This document shows, piece by piece, positions 30,099-57,335 of a stretch of 57,335 nt of DNA. Position 1 is the stretch's first letter, and the number at the start of each line of letters is the position of its first letter. A model generated the notes under the pieces. It was not told the DNA's origin, did no database searches, and saw only the letters and a list, made by a program, of their open reading frames with translations. The translations under genes and the position numbers were made by a program. The stretch covers positions 1 through 57,335 of the forward strand of contig JAIBAE010000021.1 of assembly GCA_019695345.1 (NCBI GenBank). The letters are read 5' to 3'. The stretch comes from Bacteroidota bacterium. Its GTDB lineage: Bacteria; Bacteroidota; Ignavibacteria; Kapaibacteriales; NICIL-2.

Positions 30099-30099
30099 G

Positions 30100-33374: not shown

Positions 33375-33386
33375 GGATGTACAACC

Positions 33387-33860: not shown

Positions 33861-33861
33861 T

Positions 33862-34428: not shown

Positions 34429-35745
34429 ATGAAACTCAGATTTGTTTTTTGTTGGGCAATCTTGTTATGCCTAACCAACATACTGTTATGTGCCGGAGGT
34501 ACCGAAGATACCGTTTGGACGCGGCGGCTAAAGTCACCAATAAGTTTTATTACCTTTTCACCTAAGGGTAATGTTATTGCTGTTGTGTCTGACACAACAA
34601 CCTATCTCTATGATAAGAACGGAATGGTCATCAGTTCAAACATTCCATCTCCAACAGGACCACTGACTAGTTTTAATAATAAAGTTTTTTTCGTGCAAAA
34701 TGAAGAAAACATATTGATGTTACATGACTCTGTAATACAGATATATAGCACACAAACAGGTGATTTGGTTCAATCATTTGATATAGATACAACATTGATT
34801 CGTATAGAGGGCATAAGCTCAGATGAGCAATATTGTTTAACAATACAAAGTAGAAGCGGAGGAATGTTTGATTCTCAAATTGGTTGGAAAATATGGGATA
34901 TGAAAACAGGAAAAGTACTAAAGTATAAAGAGTATAACGAGCCGCTTCCGAATGTCCGTAAAGTATCTCCATATATGGGTACATTTTTGTGTTCAGGTAA
35001 CAAAGTAGCTATAAAGGAATTTAAATATTACAATTCACCACCCGGAACATCAACTACGTACACAGTTATTTACGACGTAGAAACGCTTACTCCTTTAGAT
35101 ACAATTCAGGAAGAAGAAAAATCGTGGAAATTTACCATGTCACCGCAATGTACGTACATAGCATATAATTTACAACGCAATGATACCGGAATAAAAATCT
35201 ACAATGTAGCCACTAAAAAACTTGTGCGCTCACTTCGATGCAATGGCAATTCTGCCAGTACAATAGCATTTACTAATGATGATCAATATATTATAGTTGG
35301 GAATGTTGGTACTAACACTATAGATGTTACAAAGGTATCAACCGGAGAAAATGTATGGCATTTAGAAGGCACTACTCCACAGGGAATAAGTATCACAAGT
35401 GATAATTATTTGGCATTATTTGTTTCGTACCATTTGGATTTATACAAGCCAAATTTCCTAACAAGTGTTTCCGATATATCTCATCAAACAATTAACACAG
35501 TCATCTATCCAAATCCGGCAATTAAGGATTTACAATTAGGGGTAGAAATAGTATCACCATCAAGTGTAAAAATAGAAATAATATCTTTAATCGGAGTAGT
35601 AGTTTATCAAACAGAAACCCCACTACTCAACTCCGGTAATCAAACAATAACCATACCGTTAGAGAGTGTTGCTAACGGAGAATATCTGTTGAAGGTAAAC
35701 GCCGGAACCAAAAGCATTACGTACAAACTTATCATTAACAAATAG
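34429..35745 (+). CDS. T9SS-secreted beta-propeller (WD40/PQQ-like) protein, paralog A2
   Basis: Same N-terminal 16 aa and same C-terminal ~35 aa as A1 (identical DNA). The core is only about 45-55% identical by eye. SD AGGAG upstream. Confidence 0.75.
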   Translation: MKLRFVFCWAILLCLTNILLCAGGTEDTVWTRRLKSPISFITFSPKGNVIAVVSDTTTYLYDKNGMVISSNIPSPTGPLTSFNNKVFFVQNEENILMLHDSVIQIYSTQTGDLVQSFDIDTTLIRIEGISSDEQYCLTIQSRSGGMFDSQIGWKIWDMKTGKVLKYKEYNEPLPNVRKVSPYMGTFLCSGNKVAIKEFKYYNSPPGTSTTYTVIYDVETLTPLDTIQEEEKSWKFTMSPQCTYIAYNLQRNDTGIKIYNVATKKLVRSLRCNGNSASTIAFTNDDQYIIVGNVGTNTIDVTKVSTGENVWHLEGTTPQGISITSDNYLALFVSYHLDLYKPNFLTSVSDISHQTINTVIYPNPAIKDLQLGVEIVSPSSVKIEIISLIGVVVYQTETPLLNSGNQTITIPLESVANGEYLLKVNAGTKSITYKLIINK

Positions 35746-35757
35746 GGATGTACAACC

Positions 35758-38700: not shown

Positions 38701-41061
38701 CTTCATAATACAAATCAATCCAAAATTGTGGCATATCCACTCATGAGAGCAAACTATGCAGGTTGCACCCTTGATGCTACCGATAGCGTTGTATATTACA
38801 TGACGTATGCACGTACAGATTTTCTAACTGACAATCAGGAAGTATATTTCCGTCGTTCATTACCAAGTAAACAAAGTGATAATCACACGATGGGTTTACA
38901 ATGGGAAGATGAGATATGTTTGAGTTGTAATGGTATTCTGAAGTTAGATAACCGACTTCAAATGTTACATTGTGGAGTGCCAACTATTGTAGTAAGAGTA
39001 GATACCGCAGATAGAGATTATAGTCAAATGTTATGTGCCAATGGAATACCACAGCTAAAGACCTATGTTGTGTATGGTTGTGCAGACAACATAGATTCTA
39101 CCAAATTCAGAGTAGTTGAAAACGTATTTTTAGCACAAGGAACTATAAATGTTGGTAATGCCTTGGAAATTGATAGTTCAAATGGGATTCGTAAAGATGC
39201 CTATGGAATAAACACAACTGATCAAGAATTTATCTGGACATGGACCTCACCTGCCGTAAACGCCTCATCAAGTGGTAACTACTATGCGTATTCGGATTCC
39301 TTATTAGGAATTGTGACACGTTGGAAACCTGCGGATGCTTTGTTATTTGATGCTAACCAATCAGATAAAAATTCTGTACGTTTTTCAACTACAAGTATCA
39401 CACAATGTTTACATCCATCCTTGAACACCTATTCAAGAATTAGTCAATGGGAAAATGAATGTGCGCTTGTGTGGGAAGAACATGGAAGACCGGAAGCACC
39501 AAGTAATATTATTCCATACACAAGGATTAAGTTAAATCCAATTACTAACCCGCCACAAACAATGCATTTTCTTTCAAAGAATTTAACAAACTTCACGCCG
39601 TTCAGGTCACAGTGTAATATTGATAGCAGTGTTGTTCTGCTAAGTCTTGATACCATTGATGATAAAGAGTTCCCAATGGTGTATCGTGGAGTTGAGAACT
39701 ATCATACAGTAAATCCAACTCCGTTAGTAACAAGACATTGGGATAAAATTATATGGCAAAATTGGAGATATGATACTATATATCATTCGGAACTATATTT
39801 ACGGGGAGTAAATTCTCAGGATTCATGCGCTACTACCGACGCGGGGTGGAATGTATGGTGGTTAAATAAAATTTGGTCAGAGAATGTGTTTCTAGTTAAT
39901 CCCAACATTACACAAGGCGGAGGTGTAAGAATAGATCCAAATGATAACGCAACGAATATAAGTGATAGTTCAATAGTTGTGAATTTTTCGTATGATCCAC
40001 CTCATGATACCAGAATCATGCAAGCACAATTTGGATATTGGTCTGTCACACCAAACTTTAACTTGTTATCAATAGAGAATTTGAATAATAATTTGAACTA
40101 CGTGCCGTATGTTCAAGATATTACCGATGGGGCATATCCGCATGTATCGGCTCAACCGTGGGTAACAAATTCATCATCATGGAACATCAATCGTAGGATA
40201 TATTCACCAGATTGGGAGAGTGCTACAATAGTTAGTTCGGCACAATACTTTTATAAAAAATTCAACTCTGAAAACTCAAAACCTTTACATTACACCGGAT
40301 ATTACTTTGAAGGAGACAGCAATAGAATGGTAAAAACACTGTTCTCTAATATGAAAGTTGCCAATAAAGATGTATTGTTTGCTCCACAACGTACAATCAG
40401 TAATACAACAGTACTAGCAAAAACAGATACAATATATAGTACATGGTTTACTGTTGGAAACACAACAATCCTTGATTCATATTTGTTAGGTGTTAATAAT
40501 CCTTGTGTAAAAATAGAGGTAGAAAAAAGACGGGAAAGTAATAATGAACCCGTAGAACGATATACACTACCTTATACGAGTTCACGAAATGACCGTGAAA
40601 AACTCAAACATCGTTACACTTTACTTCGTGGAGGCAACAAGTATTATAGAATAGCATTAGTTAACCTGTGTCCACAACGAATGAAAGTAACGGAAGAAAT
40701 TCAGATTGATGGATTGCGTTCAATTGATGAATTGGGTAAGCAATCAGATGGAGAAGAATATGTTTACAGCGTTGATTTAGGAAAGAGTTTTGTAGCTGAT
40801 GATGTGTTATTTATCAAACCAAATCCGGCAGATCAACTGATAGATATTACGTTTAACGGATTATTAGAGGATATAGAGACATCAAACTTTGACTATAGTT
40901 ATGAGGTTGCAGATAATATTGGAAGGATAAAACAGAAAGGTCTCATACGGGCAGGTGAGTCGATACAAGTAAATACAAGTGGTTTATCTCAAGGTTCATA
41001 TGTAGTTCGTGTAAGAGGTTCGATAAATACATTGAGTAAATCTTTTGTGATAATGAGATAA
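35758..41061 (+). CDS. Giant (1767 aa) secreted protein with a T9SS-like C-terminal domain, function unknown
   Basis: Signal peptide MKNLIILVTIFVTTLSAYA. No recognisable catalytic motifs. The C-terminal ~90 aa (DVLFIKPNPADQLIDITFNG…YVVRVRGSINTLSKSFVIMR) are T9SS CTD-like. A strong intrinsic terminator follows at 41092-41134. Confidence 0.7.
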   Translation: MKNLIILVTIFVTTLSAYAQNNINPQPLGTFTTDNIDWNSTVFNTNINYFVRSWNWARPCKKLDDALYINSYHNISFDNIIETNLDVPDNLPVFQQLYGDPNNYWRGAGLTQSWSTPSLFNTQSMCYHPELTVDTTDSFQPMLNDAQGAVFGWLTKQLGARGTGTDQWRWVLQANQVSGTRVKVLSNAWKPDAFTFLDWLINQGDLADTWATGMNDLQTGSILDTGFYHPRNGKRMYCTINLRATNTSQIAQHLDDPVLAIRLPYVLYDSASGNSTNGVIVFDSLPNANATLTQIVGRNANDTRGMYRPQQLSRDTIIIITGRMLQNANTDNSVTLSGFFFADGLTHQGVYDNNPRFKDERGDIQASLQSIIKLDVEAYYYGNVDVAIDYIRIETQQARKIYFGSIDNPARDSLQETIIRFILNSKHPRLARIYGVEERRQSWWGVNRYFNKLMNDNATTELGIHENSPYSHYMHATGYKELWNAYTLLFNAGVAAPYLRYAHHDSVGTGNNMHNVFSARTFGFMAGYSGNDWLTNLPPSNWDTLKSHYETIINSSTQPGLTGFANNSYAPYQKFNSGSATHYTLGVQFEIEQQLYQRYYKQNAFLFGSTKWWANIWASSWGWRLDNSINTAKLNANEVRPKTGEELQYILWNTILMGAKGIQYYADISLPNEGTGFGALVGYIVRDPLGYANNNYPTGNALLYSDVAGTDWMDLNDIQSNNWSNIVHIQNNWLNLMGTDQNHIYVGMKTPRVVTSKINKWISDNEQELLALKLQAWYGKGFVKMYTQHSQYQVNDTLLGHYVNLSGLKSRPINRVHQDGTPYYENESLQNGDSTFADVMLHKHSSFSLDSVFYLGVQSRRTDPLFRESSYNNGEMTFIPTADWDNLMQNGGTYWRDNNSQTTAWWQDKYWKRQGCREITIPFNYSTLPSEPRLLHVQEVGGGIDTIIRTTGKLAIRFTPGEGKLLRVTIQRARLDVAEGELHNTNQSKIVAYPLMRANYAGCTLDATDSVVYYMTYARTDFLTDNQEVYFRRSLPSKQSDNHTMGLQWEDEICLSCNGILKLDNRLQMLHCGVPTIVVRVDTADRDYSQMLCANGIPQLKTYVVYGCADNIDSTKFRVVENVFLAQGTINVGNALEIDSSNGIRKDAYGINTTDQEFIWTWTSPAVNASSSGNYYAYSDSLLGIVTRWKPADALLFDANQSDKNSVRFSTTSITQCLHPSLNTYSRISQWENECALVWEEHGRPEAPSNIIPYTRIKLNPITNPPQTMHFLSKNLTNFTPFRSQCNIDSSVVLLSLDTIDDKEFPMVYRGVENYHTVNPTPLVTRHWDKIIWQNWRYDTIYHSELYLRGVNSQDSCATTDAGWNVWWLNKIWSENVFLVNPNITQGGGVRIDPNDNATNISDSSIVVNFSYDPPHDTRIMQAQFGYWSVTPNFNLLSIENLNNNLNYVPYVQDITDGAYPHVSAQPWVTNSSSWNINRRIYSPDWESATIVSSAQYFYKKFNSENSKPLHYTGYYFEGDSNRMVKTLFSNMKVANKDVLFAPQRTISNTTVLAKTDTIYSTWFTVGNTTILDSYLLGVNNPCVKIEVEKRRESNNEPVERYTLPYTSSRNDREKLKHRYTLLRGGNKYYRIALVNLCPQRMKVTEEIQIDGLRSIDELGKQSDGEEYVYSVDLGKSFVADDVLFIKPNPADQLIDITFNGLLEDIETSNFDYSYEVADNIGRIKQKGLIRAGESIQVNTSGLSQGSYVVRVRGSINTLSKSFVIMR

Positions 41062-41091
41062 AGTTTGAGATTACTATTAATCTTAAACAAA

Positions 41092-41134
41092 GGGTGACTG
41101 TGAGCAAGGGAGCGCAGTCGCCCTTTTTTATTTT
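41092..41134 (+). terminator. Rho-independent terminator after the giant T9SS gene
   Basis: Stem GGGTGACTG / CAGTCGCCC (9 bp with one G-U pair) followed by TTTTTTATTTT. Confidence 0.8.
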
Positions 41135-41267
41135 CACTTGATAGTTATTAAAGGAGCAAAGCACTTGGATGTTGACGCTGTTGGCGGTGATTCTCTGCAA
41201 ACCACTATTGCAGAATGGATGAATACTCATTTGAATCAGTCACGATAAAGGTTGGAACAGTAGATGA

Positions 41268-41331
41268 ACTTTTCTCTCCCGCATGGCAAGGCACACGGGA
41301 GAGAGCTAAGGTTTGGTGCGGTTTGCGGTAG
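41268..41331. repeat. Partial MITE (right end only)
   Basis: TTCTCTCCCGC…CGGGAGAGAGCTAAGGTTTGGTGCGGTTTGCGGTAGCA matches the M6 right end (TCTCTCCCGCCG…AAGGTTTGGTGCGGTCATGCGATAGCA). Confidence 0.5.
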
Positions 41332-44244: not shown

Positions 44245-44480
44245 CAATATAACCGTAGGAGCGAATAGATATTCGCCCATGTGTAGATAGATGATGAATG
44301 AACATTACACAAAAACCGGTAAGATTCTTCGCGTTGCTCAGAATGACGAAGCAGCGTTTATACCCTTTGCGCCTCTGCAAACTTTGCCTCTTTGCGAGAG
44401 AGTGATTAACAGCGACGCTGAACGTGCGGTTCGCACCGGGTTGGCGCGCTTAAGGTATGCTTCGGCATAGGCGGGAAGCA
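44245..44480. repeat. Composite repeat: hairpin unit (GGAGCGAATAGATATTCGCCC), GATTCTTCGCGTTGCTCAGAATGAC motif, leader and forward family B element
   Basis: CCCTTTGCGCCTCTGCAAACTTTGCCTCTTTGCGAGAGAGTGATTAACAGCGACGCTGAACGTGCGGTTCGCACCGGGTTGGCGCGCTTAAGGTATGCTTCGGCATAGGCGGGAAGC. About 90% identical to 49010-49170. Confidence 0.65.
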
Positions 44481-44501
44481 TGATTTGTATATGAATTACA
44501 A

Positions 44502-46310: not shown

Positions 46311-46787
46311 ATGTACACTATGAACATACGTATAGTTATAAACCTGTGGATAGGAATTGTTGCGTTTATGCTGTGCAATTCGTGTGATAATACGAACGGA
46401 CTTGTAAATACAGCCGACCCTTTGGCATCTATCTCGTGCGATAGTATGCCCGTTGGAAAAGATAATACAACTTTGCGCATTGTTGCAATTCAGCCCAACC
46501 CAACAGGCGATGTAGATGACTTCCGTGAATCCATTGTGTTGATGAATTTCAATAAAGATATGCGCATCAACATATCAAACTACTACATCAAAAACTCCCG
46601 TGGCGACCGCTACGATTTAACTGCCGGTTTTACTACAACGTGCGAGAAAAAAATACAGATAATTTCCACCTTAGAGTTCCTAAAAAACTCGGGCGACTCG
46701 TTGTTCTTGTGTTACGGCTCCAACGATATTTACCAACGCATTGGCTACACAACCGCCACCGAAGGCGCGTATATATTTATCAAGTAG
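46311..46787 (+). CDS. Lipoprotein with a lamin-tail-domain (LTD)-like fold
   Basis: Lipobox (FMLCNSC). LRIVAIQPNPTGDVDDFRESIVLMNF resembles the LTD signature (…NP.G.D…E.i.L.N…). The 5' end shares a 19-bp stretch (TTATAAACCTGTGGATAGG) with the MITE at 12733-12775. Confidence 0.5.
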   Translation: MYTMNIRIVINLWIGIVAFMLCNSCDNTNGLVNTADPLASISCDSMPVGKDNTTLRIVAIQPNPTGDVDDFRESIVLMNFNKDMRINISNYYIKNSRGDRYDLTAGFTTTCEKKIQIISTLEFLKNSGDSLFLCYGSNDIYQRIGYTTATEGAYIFIK

Positions 46788-46807
46788 AAAATAACATTTA
46801 TGTATTC

Positions 46808-46882
46808 CCACCTCTGCCGAAGCACGCCATACTACGCCGTCACCCGGGCGGAGCCAACCGTTCAGCGTCGCAGTTAATTCTA
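46808..46882. repeat. Family B dispersed repeat (reverse orientation); left inverted boundary of FG-GAP cassette 1
   Basis: Its reverse complement GAATTAACTGCGACGCTGAACGGTTGGCTCCGCCCGGGTGACGGCG…GCTTCGGCAGAGGTGGG matches 49085-49168 at both ends. Confidence 0.65.
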
Positions 46883-46957
46883 ATCAACGCAAGGACTCTA
46901 CACGTGTGCGAGATTCCCACAGAGTTACACATAGTTGTTCACAGAGTACACAAGAAA

Positions 46958-47115
46958 GATGCTTCGCATTACTCAGAATGACAAAAAGAGATAGAACGTG
47001 TATTGTTGTTCAATATAACCGTAGGGGCGAATAGACATTCGCCCATGTAATGATTGGTGAAGATGAACTCACAATAAGGCGATAGATTCTTCGCGTTGCT
47101 CAGAATGACAATAAA
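46958..47115. repeat. Composite ~125 bp repeat, 1.3 units (motif GAT[G/T]CTTCGC…CAGAATGACA + GGGCGAATAGACATTCGCCC hairpin)
   Basis: Same unit as the tandem array at 56741-57026; near-identical to 54656-54832. Confidence 0.65.
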
Positions 47116-47304
47116 GATAATGAAGTATTACGGATATGATGTAAGAATACAGAACATAACCCCATGCTTTAGCGTGGGGAAATCAAACATAACAACATGC
47201 TCTCGGACTTTAGTCCTGAGTGGTTGCAGGGCTAAAGCCCATGCCTGCGTTAGAGGTTTCTTCTCCGCGCTAAAGCGGCGGAGTTATTGAAATACGTTGG
47301 ATTC
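47116..47304. repeat. 190-bp multi-hairpin element, copy 1 (abuts the stop codon of FG-GAP gene F1)
   Basis: Four stem-loops: CCCCATGC-TTTA-GCGTGGGG (47160-47179), CTCGGACT-TTA-GTCCTGAG (47202-47220), GCAGGGC-TAAA-GCCCATGC (47226-47244), CTCCGCGC-TAAA-GCGGCGGAG (47263-47283). Near-identical copies at 54833-55003 and 57027-57214. Confidence 0.7.
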
Positions 47305-47319
47305 TTCGCGTGGGGAAAG

Positions 47320-48870
47320 TTACTGCACAATAACACCACACACATTAAACTGTGTGCCGTTATCAATCATAATGTTGTAACGCCCTGCGGCAAGTGTTGG
47401 TGGTAATGGTTGTAACGGTATATCTGTTTCTCCTTGGTGTAAGGCACCACTCCAAAGTGTTGTAATCTTTTTACCATCCATTGCATAGAGATCAATGGTG
47501 TAGGTGCCATGTTGTTGTACTGTTACTTGTACACGGATATTATCTTGTTTTGTTAGTATGGTGTTTTGTGCTGTAATTGATATACTTGGCTGTTGTATAA
47601 GTGTATCTTGCTCTGTTACACCAACCGTTCCAACAACACCAAGATAGATGCGAAATAAACTATGTTCAGTACCATCATAAAAAACTGCAATATCGCCAAG
47701 CCCATCATGATTGACATCACCTACACTAGAAATGTTTTGTGTGTATAGTTTATCATCTGGCGTAACTGGAATTGCTTCAGGTATTTTTGCAATTGGATTT
47801 GGGTTAGTGCGTGGATCACCACCAAAACATAAATCATATCCACTGAACAATGAAATTGTGATCCAACCTGGGAACTTTAAATCCGGAATTGAAACAGGAA
47901 TCTTGTACTTAGGTGTTGTTTGGCTTCTAAACCACAACTTCTCAAAATTATCATTGTCCAAATTGTATAATGTACCTATCCATAATAAACTATGTTGTGT
48001 ATTGTTGTATAAGTGGAATGATTTAATTCCTAAAGGAAAAGATTCACTATTCCCACTACTTAAAAACTGAGTACTCAACTTTTGATATTCAACTTTAACA
48101 TTAACTCCAGATGTAATAAAGCGAATTTCCCAAATGTGTAAAGAACTGTTAGAGCGGTTGTTATCCCACGTCATGGTTATCATACGTGCTTTGCCGTTGT
48201 TGGTGTAGGCATCTATAATGCACTCCTGATATAACCCTGCATCGTTGGTGTGGGGTAAGTTAACTACTTGCATTTTGCTTAAATCTGCATTACCGAAAAT
48301 GATGCTCCCTATATTGTATTCTTTGGTGGGTTTGCTATCACTTGAAACTAGGACATCTTCTTTTCCATCATTGTCGAAATCACCCTTAAAGTATCCTACA
48401 TTAAATCCGTTTTTTCTTATATCATTATAGTACGATTTAACTTCGGGTGTATCAGGAGGAACTCCATTTTTTTTACCAACATAAAAACTACACGTACTTT
48501 GGAAATAAAAGTCTTGTATACCGTCACCATTAAAGTCACCCATTAGGTGTGCAGCTCTTGCTCCCCAATTAAACATATTTTCGGTATCACCTTTATATCT
48601 GTTATATATTGTTGGTGTGTTTGCACTGAAATAAGGTATAAAAGCATTCATCCCACCACGTGCAGTATCAAAGTTTGGAAGGTACGTCATGTTCTTACCA
48701 AAGCTGGTATTCTCCAATTCATACCACACAGGAAGTTCGGGAAGTTTGGAGTAGTCTTGTGCGTGGGTTGTGTGTGGCAGGCACAGTAGCACAAGTACAA
48801 TTGTAATAGCTTTTATAACAAGCATTGCAGGGCGGTTTCTTTTGTTAGGTAATTCTGTTGCGCCAAACAT
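47320..48870 (-). CDS. T9SS-secreted FG-GAP/integrin-alpha-like repeat protein, paralog F1
   Basis: I chose the start at MFGATELPNKRNRPAMLVIKAITIVLVLLCLPHTTHA (signal peptide); the track ORF extends 258 nt further into repeat DNA. FG-GAP-like Ca-binding loops are present (GDFNGDGIQD, GDFDNDGKEDV, GDVNHDGLGD). The C-terminal T9SS CTD is GTYTIDLYAMDGKKITTLW…NVCGVIVQ. Confidence 0.75.
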   Translation of the reverse strand: MFGATELPNKRNRPAMLVIKAITIVLVLLCLPHTTHAQDYSKLPELPVWYELENTSFGKNMTYLPNFDTARGGMNAFIPYFSANTPTIYNRYKGDTENMFNWGARAAHLMGDFNGDGIQDFYFQSTCSFYVGKKNGVPPDTPEVKSYYNDIRKNGFNVGYFKGDFDNDGKEDVLVSSDSKPTKEYNIGSIIFGNADLSKMQVVNLPHTNDAGLYQECIIDAYTNNGKARMITMTWDNNRSNSSLHIWEIRFITSGVNVKVEYQKLSTQFLSSGNSESFPLGIKSFHLYNNTQHSLLWIGTLYNLDNDNFEKLWFRSQTTPKYKIPVSIPDLKFPGWITISLFSGYDLCFGGDPRTNPNPIAKIPEAIPVTPDDKLYTQNISSVGDVNHDGLGDIAVFYDGTEHSLFRIYLGVVGTVGVTEQDTLIQQPSISITAQNTILTKQDNIRVQVTVQQHGTYTIDLYAMDGKKITTLWSGALHQGETDIPLQPLPPTLAAGRYNIMIDNGTQFNVCGVIVQ

Positions 48871-49009
48871 AGCGTTGTTGTTTCCAACCTGCAAACTTGT
48901 TTTTTTTGGTGGTGATTGAAAAAGGAGTTTTTGCAGAGTACACAATGCCTGTTTATTTTCGACGCGAGGCATCGCGTCGCTACGAAAAACTACGATTATA
49001 CAACAAGGA

Positions 49010-49170
49010 GACAGATTCTTCGCGTTGCTCAGAATGACAAGGCACCATTCGTACCCTTTGCGCCTTTGCAAACTTTTGCCTCTTTGCGAGAGAGTGATTA
49101 ACTGCGACGCTGAACGTGCGGTTCGCACCGGGTTGGCGCGCTTGAGGTTTGCTTCGGCGAAGGCGGGGAA
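49010..49170. repeat. Composite repeat: GATTCTTCGCGTTGCTCAGAATGACA motif, leader and forward family B element; right inverted boundary of FG-GAP cassette 1
   Basis: …GTACCCTTTGCGCCTTTGCAAACTTTTGCCTCTTTGCGAGAGAGTGATTAACTGCGACGCTGAACGTGCGGTTCGCACCGGGTTGGCGCGCTTGAGGTTTGCTTCGGCGAAGGCGGGGAAC. Confidence 0.65.
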
Positions 49171-49238
49171 CCATGATGTATTCTAATAACCACGTAGTAT
49201 TACGTATAATTATAAATAGGCGATTATAGATGATTTTT

Positions 49239-49290
49239 TATCACTTACGGGGTAATTTTTATCACTTATAAAGTAAATCGTATCAGTTAC
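49239..49290 (+). promoter_or_regulatory. Triple direct repeat (TATCACTTAC / TATCACTTAT / TATCAGTTAC) at 21-bp phasing upstream of the HYR adhesin gene
   Basis: Repeat starts are at 49239, 49260 and 49281. Same motif and same 21-bp spacing as at 44502-44553. The array lies about 190 bp upstream of the 49478 start. Confidence 0.5.
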
Positions 49291-49477
49291 TAAAGAGAAT
49301 GTATTTGCTGACCTACGCATACATAGTTTCGTAGTGTGGATTTGATGCAACGCGCTATTACTCGGCATTGGGGAATGTTGTTAGGCAGTTGCCACTCACA
49401 TCAACTTGACATACTACGGAGAGGGAGATTCTAAAGGATTAGACCAATTGTTTTTTGTTCACCTTTTGGAGTTTCCC

Positions 49478-52400
49478 ATGAGTTTCTTCTTTAGCCGCTA
49501 TGGTAATATGTGCGGTTTACATTTTATGTGGCACAAAGTTGCCATTGTTGCTTTCCTTTTAGTTTTAGCAGGGGTTACACCAACCTTCTCTGCTGTAAAA
49601 ACGTGGACGAACGGTGCTTCCACAGGTTTGTGGAATTCTGCTAATAACTGGTCGCCAAGCGGTGCACCAACATCATCCGATACAGTTGTTTTTGATGGTA
49701 CTTCTTCCGCTAACTGTACGCTAAACACATCGGTAACTATACAAGCATTGTTTGTTGATAATACCTACAGCGGTGTGTTTGATATGAGTTCGCAAACATT
49801 AACACTTACACATGCACTTACCATAAATGGTAGTGGTAGTTTTAATGCAAATACCGGAACTATTATCATTGCATCGGCAGTTGGGTTGTTTGATTTGATG
49901 TCCACACAAGATTTATATAATCTGGAAATAGCTTCGGGCAATACGGTAAGATATAATTTATCTGTTAGCAACGATCTTACTGTTCTTCATGATTTTACTC
50001 TAACACAAATTAACAATTTGGGATGCGGCTTCTTTTGTAACAAGCGCATAGCAGTATATGGTAACGCTACTTTTAATGATACAGACGGATGGAGTGCAAC
50101 AGGACGTGTTGCAATGGTTGGTTCAGCAAATCAGCAGGTATTAGGTAATGGAATAGCAACACAGTTTATTGTTGATAAAACAGGCGGTACGGTATCGTTA
50201 AGCAGTTTTACGGGAAGTTTTGGGTTAGTTAGCGGCGGCTATTGCAGACTTGCTTCTTCTAATCAAGGTACATTAAACATTGGCGGTATTACCGTTGATG
50301 CCTTTGTATATGATATTCAGGGCGGAACACTAGCAGGTTCGGGTACTTTAAACGGAAATGTTACATGCAGTAGTACCGGAGTTCTGTCCCCGGGTGGAAA
50401 CACTGTTGGGTGTATTACCATTAATGGCGATTTAACAATGCAATCGGGTACTACACTTCGTGTAGATGTACAAGGTACTGTTGCTTGCACTCAGTTTGAC
50501 CAAGTAGTGGTTGTTGGTGCAGTAACATTAAATAACCCCACCATTACCGGCGGTACAACATTTCAAACAATAGCACCTGTTACTATTATTGATAACGATG
50601 ATACCGATGGTATTTCCGGAACATTTAACGGTATTACGAATGGTGGCTTGGTAACACTTTCGGGTAAAAGTTATGCAGTAAACTATGATGGTGATAGTGG
50701 TAATGATGTGATTCTTACAACAAATAATCTTGCACCTGTAGCGCAGTGTGCGTGGATTGACCACGGTATTGCCAGCGAGTGTTTACCATATAACATTACG
50801 GCTTCTATGGCAAACGATGGCTCGTACGACCCCGAAGGTGGACCAATTACACTTTCCGTTAATACAACCGGTCCGTTTGGTGCTAACTTTTGGTTAGTAG
50901 ATTTAACTGTTACCGATACACTTGGTGCATCATCTATGTGTCAGGCAGTAATCAATGTATATGATACACTTGCGGCAACAATTACAACACCATGCCCTAA
51001 TACTATTGTTGTTTGTGGCGAACAAGCAGTTACATGGACTGAACCGGAAGCACTTGATGCGGGTAACTGTTTTGTTACGCGTTACAGGTCATCGAGCGCA
51101 ACAAACGGAGCTGAAGCACCGGGCGATGTATTTCCTGTTGGAGTTAATGATATTTTATATCAATGGGAAGGTGGCGGTTATCCAACTGCCTATTGTATAA
51201 TGACAATTGTTGTTCTTCCGTTACCAGATGTATCAATTTCTCAAACACAGTTAACAGGTGCATGCCAAGGGGCTAAATTACTTACAGCAGATATTGCCAA
51301 TGCCGGTTCACTGCAGGCACCAATTCAATATAACTGGACGGGAACAGCAACAGGTACAACGCAAAGCATTGCTGCTACACAAAACGGTACATACACTGTA
51401 ACCGTTACCGATGGCGGTGGTTGTACAGCAACTGCAAATGTTACACTTACCGTAGATAACACCGACCCTGTTCCAAGTGTACCAACACTTTCGGATATTA
51501 CAGCAGAATGTGGTGTTACAATTACAACAGCACCAACAGCAACCGATAATTGCGCAGGCGTAATTACAGGTACAACTTCCAACCCATTAACATATTCTGC
51601 ACAAGGTTCTTATACTATAACATGGACGTACGATGATGGTAACGGTAATGTAGTAACGCAAGATCAAGATGTTGTTATACAAGATGTAACGGCACCAGTA
51701 CCAACTGTATCTAACTTAACAACGTTAACAGGTGAGTGCTCCGTTACTGTAGCAACAGCACCAACCGCAACCGATAACTGTGCAGGAACTATAACAGGTA
51801 CAACATCCGACCCACTTACCTATACAACACAAGGTACATACACCATAACATGGTTGTATGATGATGGACACGGAAATACAACAACACAAACACAAACAGT
51901 AGTTGTAGATGATATTACCGCACCTGTGCCAAACGTATCATCGTTACCGGCAATAAAAGCACAATGCGGTATAACGGTAAGTTCATTCCCAACAGCAACC
52001 GATAATTGTGTAGGAACAGTAACCGCTACAACAAATAGTCCGCTTACATACTCGGTGCAAGGCACATATTCTATCTTATGGAAATACAACGATGGAAATG
52101 GCAACAGTGTAACGCAAACACAAGCGGTAATTATTCAGGATACAATTGCACCTGTACCAAATGTGGCAGTGTTGTCAACCGTAACGGCACAATGTTCTGC
52201 TACAGTAACAACAATACCAACCGCAACCGATAATTGCAGAGGAGTTATCCAAGCTACAACTACAAGCCCGTTAACATTTACTGCACAAGGCACACATACA
52301 ATTACATGGGTGTATAACGATGGCAACGGTAATACAACAACACAAACACAAACTGTTGTAATTAACGATAACACTCCGCCTACAATTACTACACCATGTC

Positions 52401-53896
52401 CTTCTAACATAACTGTATGTAGTGGACAAAATATAACATGGACTGAACCACAAGCAACCGATAACTGCTCCGCAGTAACCAGAACACGCTCACACGTACC
52501 GGGTTCAACATTTGCTAGCGGAACAACAACTGTTACATACACCTTTACCGATGCAAAAGGTAATAGTACATCCTGTAACTTTACCGTAACAGTAGGTGGT
52601 GGCGTTAATGTATCAATTGCTGCAACGGCATTGCCGAATTTCTGCCAAGGTGCAGCACAACTAACAGCAACTGTAATGAATGCTTCGCAAAATGCAACGT
52701 ATAGTTACTCATGGTCGGGCGGTGCCGGCAATACAAGTAGTATTACAGCATTAACCAACGGAACATATACTGTAACTGTTACAAGTAACTCCGGATGTAG
52801 CGGTACTGCAACCTATACGGTGAATAATACAATCTCGGGCTTGGTATCCGGCTATGTGTTGTTGGCTAATCAGGGAATACACATGCACCGCTCCAGAGTT
52901 CAAGGGAACATAGGTGTACGGTATGCAAACAAAAAAGCAAAAGTACACGAACACTCTGTAGTAACAGGATTTGCCAAAGCTGCCACCATTCAGGTTAATG
53001 GCAACAGTTCTGTTGGTCAGCAGATTTCAGGTCAGGTTAGTGTTACCTTGCCAACGTTTATATCTAACACCAATAATAGTAACAACAATGTTACGGTAAA
53101 TCAAAATCAAACAGTAACATTAAGCAGTACAAACTATGGTAAGATTAAAATCAAACACCATGCAACCGTAACATTCACTGCCGCTCAAATCAATATCAAA
53201 GAAATCGAAGCCGATGAAAACGCAACCATTAACTTCTCGCAAGATGCAACCGTATTAGTTAAAAATGGTGTAAGCTTAGAAGAAGATAACAACGTTAACT
53301 CATCAGGCAAACGCGTTGTGTTTTATGTTGGCGATGAGTTTGAAATTGAAGGTGGCTCTTCCTTTAAAGGAAATGTGTATGCCCAAGATGACATCGAAGC
53401 AAAAGGACACAAATCGGGCGATTGGGATTGGGACGACGACGATAACCATGGCAGTTGCGGTGGTGGTTCAACCTCCGGCGATAGCACACACATGGTTGGA
53501 ATGTTTATCAGCGCAAAACAAATCAAGTCGGGTAAATACGTATCATGGAAAAACGGTGCGGCTTGTACACCAAGTAGCGGTTTCTCTGCAAAAGCAATTG
53601 CAGAAAGCACAATCGAAACCGATGAAGATGCTCCTGCCGGAAGTCCTGTTGTAGAAGTATATCCAAACCCTGCATCCAACAATATCAACGTTGTATTAAA
53701 CGGAATGGGTAAAGTAGAAAAAACAATACGTATTACAGATGTGTTAGGAAAAACAATCTTCACAACATCAGCCGATGCATCAACAACCGAAATCAATATC
53801 AACCTGCTCAATGCTTCAATACAAAATGGTATGTATATACTTCATGTTGAAACACAAACAGGCAGATATAATACTCAATTTGTTGTAGTACAATAG
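49478..53896 (+). CDS. Giant T9SS-secreted adhesin-like protein with beta-helix-like N-terminal repeats and multiple HYR domains
   Basis: Signal peptide (MSFFFSRYGNMCGLHFMWHKVAIVAFLLVLAGVTPTFSA; starts at 49478 or 49508 are possible). At least 6 repeats of about 80 aa match the HYR pattern (ATDNCAG.ITGTTS.PLTY..QG.YTITW.Y.DGNGN…Q; C-terminal TDNCSAVTRTRSHVPGSTFASGTTTVTYTFTDAKGNSTSCNFTVTV). C-terminal T9SS CTD (VVEVYPNPASNNINVVLNG…ILHVETQTGRYNTQFVVVQ). A terminator follows. Confidence 0.8.
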   Translation: MSFFFSRYGNMCGLHFMWHKVAIVAFLLVLAGVTPTFSAVKTWTNGASTGLWNSANNWSPSGAPTSSDTVVFDGTSSANCTLNTSVTIQALFVDNTYSGVFDMSSQTLTLTHALTINGSGSFNANTGTIIIASAVGLFDLMSTQDLYNLEIASGNTVRYNLSVSNDLTVLHDFTLTQINNLGCGFFCNKRIAVYGNATFNDTDGWSATGRVAMVGSANQQVLGNGIATQFIVDKTGGTVSLSSFTGSFGLVSGGYCRLASSNQGTLNIGGITVDAFVYDIQGGTLAGSGTLNGNVTCSSTGVLSPGGNTVGCITINGDLTMQSGTTLRVDVQGTVACTQFDQVVVVGAVTLNNPTITGGTTFQTIAPVTIIDNDDTDGISGTFNGITNGGLVTLSGKSYAVNYDGDSGNDVILTTNNLAPVAQCAWIDHGIASECLPYNITASMANDGSYDPEGGPITLSVNTTGPFGANFWLVDLTVTDTLGASSMCQAVINVYDTLAATITTPCPNTIVVCGEQAVTWTEPEALDAGNCFVTRYRSSSATNGAEAPGDVFPVGVNDILYQWEGGGYPTAYCIMTIVVLPLPDVSISQTQLTGACQGAKLLTADIANAGSLQAPIQYNWTGTATGTTQSIAATQNGTYTVTVTDGGGCTATANVTLTVDNTDPVPSVPTLSDITAECGVTITTAPTATDNCAGVITGTTSNPLTYSAQGSYTITWTYDDGNGNVVTQDQDVVIQDVTAPVPTVSNLTTLTGECSVTVATAPTATDNCAGTITGTTSDPLTYTTQGTYTITWLYDDGHGNTTTQTQTVVVDDITAPVPNVSSLPAIKAQCGITVSSFPTATDNCVGTVTATTNSPLTYSVQGTYSILWKYNDGNGNSVTQTQAVIIQDTIAPVPNVAVLSTVTAQCSATVTTIPTATDNCRGVIQATTTSPLTFTAQGTHTITWVYNDGNGNTTTQTQTVVINDNTPPTITTPCPSNITVCSGQNITWTEPQATDNCSAVTRTRSHVPGSTFASGTTTVTYTFTDAKGNSTSCNFTVTVGGGVNVSIAATALPNFCQGAAQLTATVMNASQNATYSYSWSGGAGNTSSITALTNGTYTVTVTSNSGCSGTATYTVNNTISGLVSGYVLLANQGIHMHRSRVQGNIGVRYANKKAKVHEHSVVTGFAKAATIQVNGNSSVGQQISGQVSVTLPTFISNTNNSNNNVTVNQNQTVTLSSTNYGKIKIKHHATVTFTAAQINIKEIEADENATINFSQDATVLVKNGVSLEEDNNVNSSGKRVVFYVGDEFEIEGGSSFKGNVYAQDDIEAKGHKSGDWDWDDDDNHGSCGGGSTSGDSTHMVGMFISAKQIKSGKYVSWKNGAACTPSSGFSAKAIAESTIETDEDAPAGSPVVEVYPNPASNNINVVLNGMGKVEKTIRITDVLGKTIFTTSADASTTEININLLNASIQNGMYILHVETQTGRYNTQFVVVQ

Positions 53897-53934
53897 TACA
53901 ATAACAAAAGCAAATTCCCCAATCCCCCAATGGG

Positions 53935-53978
53935 GCAAGGGTTGCGATAGAAATATCGTAGCCCTTGCTTCTTTTTTA
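53935..53978 (+). terminator. Rho-independent terminator after the HYR adhesin gene
   Basis: Stem of about 15 bp (GCAAGGGTTGCGATA / TATCGTAGCCCTTGC, two G-U pairs), loop GAAA, then TTCTTTTTTAT. Confidence 0.8.
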
Positions 53979-53993
53979 TAAACAGGAGGTATA

Positions 53994-54473
53994 ATGGAAC
54001 ATAATGCTTCAATGCAACCCGATTGGGAATCGCAAGAGCTTGGATTAAACACTCGGCGTCCTCATATCCAACCCATTCCGGGCATACGCTACCAACCCGA
54101 ACCACACATCAATTCCTACGATTACCTTCAGCTTCTTTACCTAACCGGAGTAATCGAAAAATATCGTAATTCCGAAGTAGAAGTAATAACCGCCATGATA
54201 AAAAACTCATTGATAATTACTGCGCGGCAAGACGCACTATTAGTAGCTGCGGCGCGGTATGTAACCGACTACATTAACACAACATTTGTAGCCGAACTAC
54301 TTGTACGGGAAGACTTTCGCCGTGCCGGAATCGGTATGGAACTCATCAAAGAAATACATAAACTGCATCCAAACACCAACGTATGTTTTTCGCCTACGGA
54401 TATGTTCAACGAATACATCCCGCTTGGGTTAGAAGTTGTAAAGTTCAACGCAGTTCTGCCAAGCACAGTATAA
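53994..54473 (+). CDS. GNAT-family N-acetyltransferase (putative)
   Basis: GNAT motif-A-like stretch LLVREDFRRAGIGMELIKEI. 159 aa. GGAGGT SD 6 nt upstream. Confidence 0.55.
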   Translation: MEHNASMQPDWESQELGLNTRRPHIQPIPGIRYQPEPHINSYDYLQLLYLTGVIEKYRNSEVEVITAMIKNSLIITARQDALLVAAARYVTDYINTTFVAELLVREDFRRAGIGMELIKEIHKLHPNTNVCFSPTDMFNEYIPLGLEVVKFNAVLPSTV

Positions 54474-54501
54474 AGTGTACTTAGAAGAAAGTACATTGTG
54501 A

Positions 54502-54575
54502 TTCCCTCCTTTGCCGAAACGCGCCATACTGCGCCGTCACCCGGGCGGAGCCAACCGTTACAGCATCGCAGTTAA
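54502..54575. repeat. Family B dispersed repeat (reverse orientation); left boundary of FG-GAP cassette 2
   Basis: TTTGCCGAAACGCGCCATACTGCGCCGTCACCCGGGCGGAGCCAACCGTTACAGCATCGCAGTTAATTC. About 90% identical to 46808-46882. Confidence 0.65.
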
Positions 54576-54655
54576 TTCTAGTTAACGCAAAGACTCTACA
54601 CGTGTACGAGGTTCCCACAGAGTTACACAGAGTTGTTCACAGAGTACACAAAACA

Positions 54656-54832
54656 GATTCTTCGCATTACTCAGAATGACAAAAAGAGATACAACGTGTA
54701 TTGTTGTTCAATATAACTGTAGGGGCGAATAGACATTCGCCCATGTAATGATTGGTGAAGATGAACTCACAATAAGGCGATAGATTCTACGCGTTGCTCA
54801 GAATGACAAAAAGAGATAATATAGTATGACAG
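54656..54832. repeat. Composite ~125 bp repeat, about 1.4 units
   Basis: Near-identical to 46958-47115, including the GGGCGAATAGACATTCGCCC hairpin at about 54722. Confidence 0.65.
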
Positions 54833-55003
54833 ATATGATGTAAAAATGCAGAACATAACCCCATGCTTTAGCGTGGGGAAATCAAACATAACAACATGCT
54901 CTCGGACTTTAGTCCTGAGTGGTTGCAGGGCTAAAGCCCATGCCTACGTTAGAGGTTTCTACTCCGCGCTAAAGCGGCGGAGTTATTGAAATACGTTGGA
55001 TTC
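54833..55003. repeat. 190-bp multi-hairpin element, copy 2 (abuts the stop codon of FG-GAP gene F2)
   Basis: Same four TTTA/TAAA-loop hairpins as 47116-47304, with a few substitutions (GCCTACGTTAGAGGTTTCTACTCC). Confidence 0.7.
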
Positions 55004-55018
55004 TTCGTGTGGGGAAAG

Positions 55019-56587
55019 TTACTGCACAATAACACCACACACATTAAACTGAGTACCGTTATCAATCATAAGGTTGTAACGCCCTGCGGCAAGTGTTGTT
55101 GGTAATGGTGGTAACGGTATATCTGTTTCTCCTTGTTGCAAGGCACCACTCCAAAGCGTTGTTATCTTTTTACCATCCATTGCATAGAGATCAATGGTGT
55201 AGGTGCCACTATGCTCTGCCGTTGCATGAACATCTAAAGAACTGCCTTTGCTAACCACTGCATTACGTACAGAAATTGCAATGTGCTTTGTAGTTGTGTT
55301 TTGAGGTTGTTCGTTAACACCTACGTTTTTATCTATACCTAGGTAGATTGCAAACTTTGTTATACCATAGCTTACTTTCCATCCATCGTAATAGACAGCT
55401 ATATCTCCAAATCCATCGTTATTTACATCACCTACAGAAATAGCATTAGACAAAATAAGATAATCGTCACTATTGTTGTAGTATCCTAGATAGATTTTTG
55501 CGTAGGGGATTGAATCAGTGAATGGATTGCCTTTAGTAATTAGGCCAAGCCGATTGTTAAATATAGGATTTGTAATATCACTTATTGCTGTATATTCATA
55601 ATGAACTTCATTGTTAATATAGTGATGTAATATTTTATACGGTCTGCTTGAGAACGCTTTTTTATGCTCAATTAAATTTTCTTCAATTTGGTACACATCA
55701 TCTAATATGACTATTACTCTCTTATCGTTGTTTATTCCCAATAACCTTAATGGAGCATTGACTCCAACTGAGTAAGGAATAGGTTGTGAATAAACATTAT
55801 TATACTTTACTTTAAGGTCTGTTCCTGCTGTAATAAACTGTATTTCCCATAAAACAAGTTTTGCGGTTTTGAACTGGTTGTCGGCTGCAATTGTAATCAT
55901 ACGTGCTTTGCCGTTGTTGGTGTAAGCATCAATGATACACTCCTGATAAAATCCTGCGTCGTTGGTGTGGGGTAAGTTAACAACTTGCATCTTGCTTAAA
56001 TCTGCATTGCCGAAAATGATGCTACCGAGATTGTATTCTTTGGTGGGTTTGCTATCACTTGAAACTAGGACATCTTCTTTACCATCATTGTCGAAATCAC
56101 CCTTAAAGTATCCTACATTAAATCCATTTTTTCTTATATCATTATAGTACGATTTAACTTCGGGTGTATCAGGAGGAACTCCATTTTTTTTACCAACATA
56201 AAAACTACATGTACTCTGGAAATAAAAGTCTTGTATACCGTCACCATTAAAGTCACCCATTAGGTGTGCAGCTCTTGCTCCCCAATTAAACATATTTTCG
56301 GTATCACCTTTATATCTGTTATATATTGTTGGTGTGTTTGCACCGAAATAGGGTATAAAAGCATTAATCCCACCACGAGCAGTATCAAAATTAGGAAAGT
56401 AGTACATATTTTTTCCAAAGCTTGTATTCTCCAATTCATACCACACAGGAAGTTCGGGTAGTTTGGAGTAGTCTTGTGCGTGGGTTGCGTGTGGCAGGCA
56501 CAGTAGCACAAGTACAATAGTAATAGCTTTTATAACAAGCATTGCAGGGTAATTTCTTTTGGTTAGTAATTCTGTTGCGCCAAACAT
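55019..56587 (-). CDS. T9SS-secreted FG-GAP/integrin-alpha-like repeat protein, paralog F2
   Basis: I chose the start at MFGATELLTKRNYPAMLVIKAIT… (56587). The N-terminal ~225 aa and C-terminal ~60 aa are near-identical to F1, and the central ~240 aa are diverged. Confidence 0.75.
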   Translation of the reverse strand: MFGATELLTKRNYPAMLVIKAITIVLVLLCLPHATHAQDYSKLPELPVWYELENTSFGKNMYYFPNFDTARGGINAFIPYFGANTPTIYNRYKGDTENMFNWGARAAHLMGDFNGDGIQDFYFQSTCSFYVGKKNGVPPDTPEVKSYYNDIRKNGFNVGYFKGDFDNDGKEDVLVSSDSKPTKEYNLGSIIFGNADLSKMQVVNLPHTNDAGFYQECIIDAYTNNGKARMITIAADNQFKTAKLVLWEIQFITAGTDLKVKYNNVYSQPIPYSVGVNAPLRLLGINNDKRVIVILDDVYQIEENLIEHKKAFSSRPYKILHHYINNEVHYEYTAISDITNPIFNNRLGLITKGNPFTDSIPYAKIYLGYYNNSDDYLILSNAISVGDVNNDGFGDIAVYYDGWKVSYGITKFAIYLGIDKNVGVNEQPQNTTTKHIAISVRNAVVSKGSSLDVHATAEHSGTYTIDLYAMDGKKITTLWSGALQQGETDIPLPPLPTTLAAGRYNLMIDNGTQFNVCGVIVQ

Positions 56588-56740
56588 AGCGTAGTTGATT
56601 TCAACCTGCAAACTTGTTTTTTTGGTGGTGATTGAAAAGTGGTTCTCACAGAGTTATTCGCAGAGTTTACAATGCCTGTTTTTTTTCGACGCGAAGCATC
56701 GCGTCGCTACGAAAGGATGAGATTATACGATAAAGAGAGA

Positions 56741-57026
56741 GATTCTTCGCGTTGCCGAGAATGACAAGAGAGATACAACGTGAATTATTGTTGAATATAA
56801 CCGTAGGGGCGAATAGACATTCGCCCATGTATTGATTGGTGAAGATGCACTCCCAACAAAGAGATAGATTCTTCGTGCTGCCAAGAATGACAAATAGAGA
56901 TACAACGTGAATTATTGTTGAATATAACTGTAGGGGCGAATAGACATTCGCCCATGTAATGATTGGTAAAGATGAACTCACAATAAGGCGAAAGATTCTT
57001 CGCATTGCCGAGAATGACAAAAAGAG
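56741..57026. repeat. Tandem array of the composite ~126 bp repeat (2.3 units)
   Basis: Units start at 56741, 56867 and 56994. Each is GATTCTTCG[C/T]…[C/T]GAGAATGACAA + ATACAACGTGAATTATTGTTGAATATAAC + CGTAGGGGCGAATAGACATTCGCCCATG + TAATGATTGGTGAAGATG…. The units are about 90% identical. Confidence 0.75.
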
Positions 57027-57214
57027 ATAATGAAGTATTACGGATATGATGTGAGAATGTAGAACATAACCCCATGCTTTAGCGTGGGGAAATCAAACAT
57101 AACAACATGCTCTCGGACTTTAGTCCTGAGTGGTTGCAGGGCTAAAGCCCATGCCTACGTTAGAGGTTTCTTCTCCGCGCTAAAGCGGCGGAGTTATTGA
57201 AATACGTTGGATTC
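57027..57214. repeat. 190-bp multi-hairpin element, copy 3 (not adjacent to a gene)
   Basis: Identical hairpin set: CCCCATGCTTTAGCGTGGGG, CTCGGACTTTAGTCCTGAG, GCAGGGCTAAAGCCCATGC, CTCCGCGCTAAAGCGGCGGAG. Confidence 0.7.
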
Positions 57215-57240
57215 GTAATTCGTAAACAAAATGCGAAGCA

Positions 57241-57300
57241 GGTGGTGCGGTTCGCACCGGGTTGGCGCGCAGAAGGATTGCTTCGTGAGAGGTGGGAAAC
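57241..57300. repeat. Family B dispersed repeat (forward-type)
   Basis: GGTGGTGCGGTTCGCACCGGGTTGGCGCGCAGAAGGATTGCTTCGTGAGAGGTGGGAAAC. Confidence 0.6.
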
Positions 57301-57335
57301 AACTACTCTCCGGAACTGAGTATAGATAAGATGTA

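Follow-up and report, generated by a model that had tools for sequence, protein, structure and literature searches.

Repeat-module arrays around a duplicated FG-GAP gene in a Kapabacteria genome: a recurring, mosaic gene unit flanked by copies of a common gene-boundary repeat

By what means did a gene for a probable surface protein come to be duplicated, within one bacterial genome, together with a whole set of small repeats around it? The question is raised by a stretch of 57,335 nt (hereafter, the window; GenBank JAIBAE010000021.1 of assembly GCA_019695345.1, a whole contig of a metagenome-assembled genome, from a bacterium of the Kapaibacteriales, phylum Bacteroidota), in which the FG-GAP gene F1 lies in an array of short modules that we call cassette 1, and its paralogue F2 in a second such array, cassette 2. 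All coordinates are positions in the window, on the plus strand unless stated. A preliminary description had proposed that F1 is cargo of the type IX secretion system (T9SS) carried between imperfect terminal inverted repeats of a repeat family, B, and possibly mobilised in trans. The features listed there for cassette 1 (both B copies, the composite repeat, the four-hairpin element, the open reading frame (ORF), the C-hairpin and the G motifs) were all found with nhmmer and by alignment, at the positions given (Table 1). The transposon-like reading, on the other hand, is largely refuted by the comparisons below: the flanking B copies appear to be two unrelated copies of a common gene-boundary repeat rather than the ends of a mobile element. 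For the recurring gene unit, we favour, with a probability of roughly 60%, host homologous recombination within the repeat modules, by which the unit would be copied, converted and deleted and the chromosome rearranged.

Over the core, the B pair around F1 is 67% identical, the same value as the average over all 91 B pairs, among which it ranks at 47%; its members are no closer to each other than random B copies, an outcome that the preliminary description had itself named as speaking against its proposal. The pair around F2 is 59% identical. The flanking copies of F1 belong to different subfamilies (left, B2; right, B1), and each has its closest relative elsewhere: for the left B, this is the corresponding copy of cassette 2 (90%), for the right B the copy at 44401–44480 (92%). 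The only exact match between them is one 20-nt stretch at their inner (5′) ends, while transposon ends are usually most conserved at their outer tips. Inspection of the sequence outside the B ends of cassette 1 (left flank, ...AACATTTA; right flank, TGATGTATT...) revealed no direct repeat on either side, that is, no target-site duplication.

Nor does the duplicated DNA extend from one B to the other. The F1/F2 duplication, as delimited by alignment of the cassettes, spans 46804–49041 and 54501–56768: identity is about 94% from 46804/54501 to 47500, drops to 40–60% between 47500 and 48170, and is again about 94% up to 49041/56768, where it is lost. The left limit is the left B, in which identity decays towards the outer end (41/50 versus 45–49/50), as would be expected if crossovers occurred inside resident B copies. 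The right limit is a G motif, GATTCTTCGCG, and the right B, at which the cassette had been thought to end, lies outside the duplication. Hence, the claim that the same architecture recurs at 54502–57300 stands for 54501–56768, beyond which cassette 2 has COMP-G-COMP-G-H4-B in place of TTTGC-B. The right B would belong to a 183-nt G-TTTGC-B1 composite (48995–49177) in front of the adhesin gene; it is 88% identical to 44304–44484, in front of another gene, and has no match in cassette 2. The left B, the 3′ end of which lies 15–20 nt past the stop codon of ORF 46311–46787, would belong to the 3′ end of that upstream gene.

Similar B pairs occur in other settings. The orientation of B nearly alternates along the window, so head-to-head pairs are common; their arms are 10, 79 or 264 nt apart or, around F1 and F2, 2.2–2.7 kb. 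In another species (contig L022), Lrp, mtgA and xth lie between two head-to-head B copies that are 2.3 kb apart. As such pairs are frequent and one of them encloses housekeeping genes, an inverted B pair around a gene is in itself unremarkable. Conversely, a third paralogue of the window genes, F3, has a B copy on its upstream side only and a different module downstream, and the F homologue P0007 of another species (L085) has one B upstream and none downstream, where the next gene abuts its stop codon.

We have compared the window with three further assemblies of the same species: GCA_046329015.1 (a single 3.28-Mb contig; 99.05% identical), GCA_044230155.1 (98.1%) and GCA_016788765.1 (about 97%). 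No presence/absence polymorphism of a cassette and no insertion polymorphism was seen in these four assemblies of one species, the last of which covers the F2 side only. Between 43.5 and 50.5 kb, there are 2 mismatches in the two other assemblies that span the region, and both cassettes occupy the same sites there. No transposase or integrase was found among the approximately 37 window ORFs scanned, every neighbour of both cassettes included; the scan left out four ORFs at 25568–31431, three of which have precomputed Pfam families, while the fourth, with a 138-aa product, has none. The window contains no gene for a REP-associated tyrosine (Y1) transposase (RAYT), and cassette DNA had no match in plasmid and phage collections.

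What does recur is the gene unit. The N-terminal ~225 aa and the C-terminal region of F1 and F2 had been called identical and their centres unrelated; in fact, the proteins are 95.7% identical over residues 1–232, 93.5% over residues 455–516 and 31.7% over residues 233–454, where they can still be aligned. F3 (P0004/P0021), a third intact paralogue, stands between genes for a LytTR response regulator and TrmO; on the 3.28-Mb contig, it lies at ~416 kb on the plus strand, ~190 kb from F1 and F2 (~600–609 kb, minus strand). It has in common with them the unit CACAGAG-G-COMP-G-H4-gene-CH-G (window 46910–49040), the left limit of which falls inside the CACAGAG module at ~46910, and its flanks are 93–98% identical to theirs. 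Amongst the three genes, 673 informative sites fall into 197 runs, compared with 407 ± 12 in permutations (0 of 2000 as low), and form long blocks in which F1 = F2, F2 = F3 or F1 = F3. On the evidence of these alignments, we read the block pattern as the signature of repeated gene conversion among the paralogues. Of the earlier proposal of a repeat-bounded module that is duplicated and diversified, the three copies, the mosaic pattern and the recurring unit are borne out; the role of B as mobilising ends is not. The same mosaic pattern had been noted for a pair of beta-propeller genes (32064, 34429), which are indeed 54% identical with near-identical ends, like F1 and F2; considered as relatives of the F genes, they proved unrelated to F1 by comparison.

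A gene-less version of the array occurs between two convergent genes at 28.4 kb (Table 1). It is colinear with both ends of cassette 1 at 73–81% identity and is also without a gene in GCA_016788765.1; because it has both cassette ends in the same order, we regard the module as a recurring unit. The 12-mer CAGAGTACACAA, two direct copies of which surround 46954–48945 in cassette 1, occurs there once, a pattern that fits either a deletion between the direct repeats or an insertion at that site. The CH module, found upstream of F1, F2 and F3, is also within the gene-less array. The H4 element starts 13 nt beyond the F1 stop codon and folds as a single long hairpin (z = −4.1). A promoter and terminator scan of the cassette gave counts at chance level.

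The modules, 50–190 nt each, are all separated by the G motif (ATTCT-N11-AGAAT; linker GATTCTTCGCGTTGCTCAGAATGACA), which stands between CACAGAG, COMP, H4, CH, X53 and TTTGC modules in the window and in contigs L001 and L005/L125. Module content upstream of F2 or F3 varies among genomes of 98–99% identity (Table 1), and the strain differences upstream of F2 begin exactly at a G motif, at 56768/56777. Other arrays, at 44.2 kb and in L005 at 6.3 kb, are derivable from a cassette by loss of a stretch between two G motifs. The LytTR response-regulator gene at the end of the window is a neighbour of F3, not of F2, in other assemblies (L005, L125 9435–9800); that it stands next to F2 in the window would reflect either an inversion of ~190 kb by way of the F2 and F3 cassettes, which are inverted relative to each other, or a false join where the contig ends. 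A full-text literature search for the G-motif sequence returned nothing relevant, and repeats are not discussed in the Kapabacteria papers.

Family B, a structured repeat of 65 nt, has 14 copies in the window (nhmmer); degenerate B patterns gave 9 and 11 matches in the window and 0 in shuffled sequences. Alignment separates the subfamilies B1 (hairpin GGTTCGCACCGGGTTGGCGCGC) and B2 (hairpin GGCTCCGCCCGKGTGACGGCG). About 28 metagenome contigs from a different species contain a full-length B, and in these only B matches the window, while the flanks do not. In an alignment of 52 copies, the inner hairpin shows three stem pairs with compensatory changes (GC35/CG15, GC27/CG23, AU39/CG9/GC2), 94.6% of the cells are paired, and no shuffle reached the observed score. 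An outer helix and an alternative UUCG hairpin were indistinguishable, so the inner hairpin alone is supported. G·T wobbles outnumber A·C mismatches 36 to 2, which makes the forward-named strand the folding strand. The view of B as a stable RNA was rejected: the stability of single copies does not exceed that of shuffled sequence, which suggests a hairpin recognised by a protein. There is no Rfam 15 family at gathering score in the whole window; at E ≤ 1, 46700–49300 yielded one chance match only (E = 0.34), and no tRNA genes were found. Searched against species-representative genomes, which do not include the source species, the B pattern gave two chance matches, in an alphaproteobacterium and a member of the Gemmatimonadota. 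With its covariation, its conservation across species and no match in Rfam, B is a candidate new structured repeat.

The position of B relative to genes is regular, within limits. By a hand tally from gene tables, all 10 source-species copies near a stop codon have their 3′ end facing it, at 2–82 nt; nine others, by hand count, lie in divergent intergenic regions, 89–386 nt from a start codon, and there the 3′ end points to one of the two gene starts. An automatic ORF-based count that includes the metagenome copies gave 25 stops and 16 starts on the 3′ side of B, and 18 stops and 17 starts on the 5′ side. That an ordinary operon always lies on the 3′ side of B was rejected as a strict rule, which is broken by L022 and by the stretch from 31.5 to 44.4 kb. 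Canonical intrinsic terminators (a GC-rich hairpin followed by a T run) were noted at 28285–28325, after gene 25568–28264, and at 41090–41133, after 35758–41061; at 28.3 kb, B lies beyond the terminator and is thus not needed for termination.

Under the reading that we favour, the B, G and CACAGAG modules would act as portable homology arms, between which host homologous recombination would copy the gene unit into new arrays. Patchwise conversion between the paralogues would keep their ends 94–98% identical while the centre stands at ~32%, deletion between direct repeats would leave gene-less arrays such as 28345–28735, and recombination between arrays would also rearrange the chromosome. Any function of B would resemble that of repetitive extragenic palindromic (REP) elements. 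The anatomy, the mosaicism of the paralogues, the array variation between strains and the covariation in the B hairpin are shown; the recombination mechanism and any function of B are inferred. Several observations weigh against this scheme. Recombination was not observed directly, and the mechanism is read from patterns. The gene-less array may just as well be an ancestral site that is unoccupied, and the link between F2 and the neighbour of F3 falls at the end of a contig, where it could be an assembly artefact. Furthermore, the boundaries at 46804, 31552 and ~33850 fall within a few nt of B ends, which a site-specific process would also explain, and the wobble count (36 versus 2) favours folding of the strand antisense to the upstream mRNA, a poor fit to a role as RNA in the 3′ untranslated region.

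One alternative is a site-specific recombinase. Such an enzyme, with the CAGAGTACACAA core or the G motif as its target, in the way proposed for the neisserial repeat dRS3, could have inserted the gene unit (G-COMP-G-H4-gene-leader, 46954–48945) into pre-existing arrays, in which case the gene-less array at 28.4 kb would be an unoccupied site. The 12-mer has a single copy in that array and, in cassette 1, two that lie as direct repeats on either side of the unit; all module junctions have a G motif, as has the right limit of the shared unit, the strain differences start exactly at one such motif (56768/56777), and the boundaries at B ends are nucleotide-sharp. However, the 12-mer is part of the reiterated CACAGAGT word, so that the direct repeat could have pre-existed and mediated a deletion; its upstream copy is imperfect or of different length at F2 and F3, the window contains no recombinase gene, and the patchwork mosaicism of the coding region needs homologous recombination anyway. 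We consider an insertion of this kind unlikely. Bolder, and somewhat less probable still, is the idea that the arrays bounded by B1 and B2 are landing pads of a recombinase-driven gene-cassette system in Kapabacteria that shuttles T9SS cargo genes, with the junctions at B ends and G motifs as recombination sites and the 28.4-kb array as an empty shell. A slim chance is left to a non-autonomous cassette with family-B terminal inverted repeats, mobilised in trans by a B-recognising transposase. Inverted B copies do flank F1 and, in the window, F2, with their inner 20 nt identical around F1; the conserved B hairpin could be recognised by a protein, and the 390-nt gene-less element, with its inverted B1/B2 pair and the same end modules, recalls the relation of a miniature inverted-repeat transposable element (MITE) to its parent. 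To MITEs and other non-autonomous transposons bounded by terminal inverted repeats, the likeness consists in an inverted repeat pair around a variable interior and a short gene-less version; the differences are that no target-site duplication is present here, that the arms are no closer than the family average and conserved at their inner rather than outer ends, that the duplicated unit stops short of the right B, and that no transposase was found among the window ORFs scanned. Moreover, F3 and the L085 homologue are without a downstream B, B pairs of the same geometry enclose housekeeping genes or just 10–264 nt, and there is no insertion polymorphism in the four assemblies (one species).

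The arrays might also have no mechanistic link with the gene at all, independent MITE- or REP-like elements having accumulated around an ordinary duplicated gene in an order that is coincidental. Indeed, modules also occur alone or in other combinations (COMP-G-TTTGC-B at 44.2 kb, H4 upstream of F3, single B copies). Yet sets of five to nine modules, 73–98% identical, are found at up to six sites with their order and orientation unchanged, and because of this recurrence we take whole arrays to share common descent; a coincidence of module order is very unlikely. Least probable of all, and hardly to be entertained, is that the cassettes or their junctions are repeat-induced misassemblies in a metagenome bin. 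The metagenomic contig does end 30 nt beyond the repeats, and its last 560 nt connect F2 with the F3 neighbour, unlike the three other assemblies, but three assemblies (the window, the single 3.28-Mb contig GCA_046329015.1 and GCA_044230155.1; GCA_016788765.1 covers the F2 side only) have F1, the adhesin gene, the GNAT gene and F2 in colinear arrangement, and F1, F2 and F3 differ at hundreds of sites, so that the doubt is limited to the terminal junction.

The described system that comes nearest, by analogy of organisation but not of sequence, is that of the intergenic mosaic elements known from Neisseria (NIMEs), arrays in which dRS3 repeats flank RS elements and a short inverted-repeat linker separates many families of 50–200-nt modules, and which vary in module number between close strains and flank surface-protein genes with elevated variation (PMC1797815). 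For Neisseria, recombination within the arrays has been put forward as the way in which the genes flanked by them move (PMC1797815). The minimal mobile elements of Neisseria belong to the same comparison. The linker found here, ATTCT-N11-AGAAT, is an analogue of dRS3 (ATTCCC-N8-GGGAAT) and not a member of it by sequence; there is no sequence homology between the arrays, the phylum is unrelated, no context of DNA uptake or transformation is known here and no linker-targeting recombinase was identified, and the second repeat, B, is a structured hairpin with compensatory changes that stands at gene boundaries. A hairpin beside B in the hydrolase-bearing strains (L001 18830–18900, reverse; GTCATTCCCGAAAACGC...GCGTTTATCGGGAATCA) has arms, ATTCCC...GGGAAT, that resemble the dRS3 consensus of Neisseria. 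With gene-converted surface-protein families such as pilE/pilS and maf/fha of Neisseria, the F genes have in common the conserved ends, the variable centre and the patchwise exchange inside repeat arrays (PMC1797815). They differ in being three intact copies, each with its own near-identical upstream region, with no silent partial cassettes and no sign of programmed switching.

Family B, in turn, is closest in behaviour to REP elements and the bacterial interspersed mosaic elements (BIMEs) of Proteobacteria: it is a short, very abundant extragenic hairpin repeat, often in inverted doublets, usually located just past stop codons with a fixed orientation, and its subfamilies keep the stem by compensatory changes. 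In contrast to REP, a single B is no more stable than shuffled sequence and has no GTAG-type 5′ motif. REP doublets that form hairpins (REPINs) are mobilised by RAYT transposases, a RAYT being a Y1 transposase gene flanked by REP repeats; the arms of B doublets are only 57–64% identical and, unlike those of REPINs, would not form long hairpins.

The product of F1 fits the description of an FG-GAP protein: both Pfam models, PF01839 (FG-GAP; 39.7 bits, cut-off 22.1) and PF13517 (FG-GAP_3; 28.4 bits, cut-off 26.9), match above their curated cut-offs. It has a signal peptide, an FG-GAP/VCBS beta-propeller-like core and a C-terminal beta-sandwich, and its NCBI version counts 550 aa. Exact look-ups returned no record of the 516-aa F1 or of P0022, the F3 protein from the same metagenome-assembled genome as the window. 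As to the C-terminal T9SS sorting domain attributed to F1, F1 and F2 have no match to PF18962 or TIGR04183 at E ≤ 0.01, while 9 of 20 aligned homologues match PF18962 (best E-value, 2.7e-07). The F proteins are secreted proteins that probably carry a T9SS sorting domain. An AlphaFold model of F1 (mean predicted local distance difference test score (pLDDT) of 73.8) has a beta-rich core and a confident C-terminal beta-sandwich (residues 430–516); its fold matches are generic beta-propellers with low template-modelling (TM) scores. The closest database proteins are from Candidatus Kapaibacterium and Kapabacteria. In a related organism (L006, Logan SRR14932482, 611–12107), an F homologue, 60% identical, lies directly upstream of a gene for a 1765-aa T9SS protein that resembles the product of window gene 35758–41061, followed by SLATT, SMODS, TerB and BrxC-like genes, the context of a defence island.

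Other parts of the window vary between strains as well. A strain-specific segment of 9.6 kb (31553–41143) contains the two T9SS beta-propeller paralogues, a truncated ORF and the gene for a 1767-aa T9SS protein (35758–41061). It replaces ~1.1 kb with a gene for a 310-aa alpha/beta-hydrolase, the last ~100 nt of which are left at 41144–41247; the hydrolase gene is present in L001 and L002 and probably in L126, judged from 21 nt at the contig start. On its left, the segment's junction coincides exactly with the 5′ end of a B copy (31552). Within it, 33243–33849 and 35614–36220 are 95.6% identical over 607 nt, and a 157-aa ORF (33387–33860), which duplicates the N-terminus of the 1767-aa protein in truncated form, ends a few nt from the B at 33857–33919. 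Between the two cassettes, 50500–54800, with the HYR/T9SS adhesin gene (49478–53896) and the GNAT gene, has 10–30 differences per 500 nt from GCA_044230155.1, compared with almost none at 43.5–50.5 kb; this clustering suggests recombination tracts in the surface-protein gene. The adhesin gene also includes four or five tandem 228-nt repeats (51500–52411; 65–81% identical) that encode HYR-like domains.

Two further repeats were noted in intergenic DNA. The short motif GGTGCGGNNNNGCGNTAGCA recurs at 8197, 10381, 20819, 21052 and 23666, with related copies at 2759, 12751, 18273 and 41311; it often lies directly past stop codons (21052, by the stop at 21076; 18273, by the stop at 18309), is sometimes preceded by a hairpin (41270–41300) and is a second candidate gene-end element. 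A CACGGAG-rich family occurs at 12564–12702, 18086–18224 and 20873–20958, two copies of which, 5.5 kb apart, are 99% identical over 139 nt.

Table 1. Features of the cassettes and related arrays (window coordinates).
Feature	Coordinates	Strand	Content or remark	Evidence
Family-B repeat, subfamily B2 (cassette 1)	46802–46881	−	hairpin GGCTCCGCCCGGGTGACGGCG	nhmmer, alignments
CACAGAG module	46884–46951	+	repeated CACAGAGT words	module mapping
12-mer CAGAGTACACAA	46942–46953	+	first direct-repeat copy bracketing the gene unit	
G motif, degenerate copy	46954–46983	+	linker between modules	
COMP module	46993–47070	+	hairpin GGGCGAAT-AGAC-ATTCGCCC	
G motif AGATTCTTCGCGTTGCTCAGAATGACA	47081–47111	+	ATTCT-N11-AGAAT	
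H4 ("four-hairpin" element)	47120–47304	undefined	185 nt, internally palindromic	folding, module mapping
F1 gene	47320–48870	−	516 aa from ATG at 48870	
CH module	48925–48999	+	hairpin CGACGCGA-GGCA-TCGCGTCG	
12-mer CAGAGTACACAA	48934–48945	+	second direct-repeat copy bracketing the gene unit	
G motif	49009–49041	+	right limit of the unit common to F1, F2 and F3	
TTTGC module	49042–49092	+		
Family-B repeat, subfamily B1 (cassette 1)	49093–49172	+	hairpin GGTTCGCACCGGGTTGGCGCGC	nhmmer
Cassette 2	54499–56768	−	B2 54499–54579, CACAGAG, G, COMP, G, H4 54822–55003, F2 gene 55019–56587 (−), CH 56656–56726, G 56737–56768	alignments, nhmmer
Gene-less array	28345–28735		B1(−), TTTGC, G, G, CH, CACAGAG, B2(+)	
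Strain-specific array upstream of F2	56777–57335		COMP, G, COMP, G, H4, B1 57229–57301, last 30 nt of LytTR response-regulator gene	
F2 upstream array, window			RR-B-H4-G-COMP-G-COMP-G-CH-F2	
F2 upstream array, L001, L002, L007			GT-B-unique-G-X53-G-CH-F2	
F3 upstream array, L005, L125			RR-B-H4-G-X53-G-CH-F3	

If recombination between the arrays is indeed at work, an uncultured Bacteroidota-related lineage would have independently evolved a Neisseria-like arrangement of repeat arrays around surface-protein genes, in which the arrays would serve as substrates for duplication, conversion and deletion, and possibly for a chromosomal inversion of ~190 kb. This would explain why assemblies break or are mis-joined at such loci in these genomes, and it would provide a concrete mechanism for the diversification of surface proteins secreted by the T9SS.

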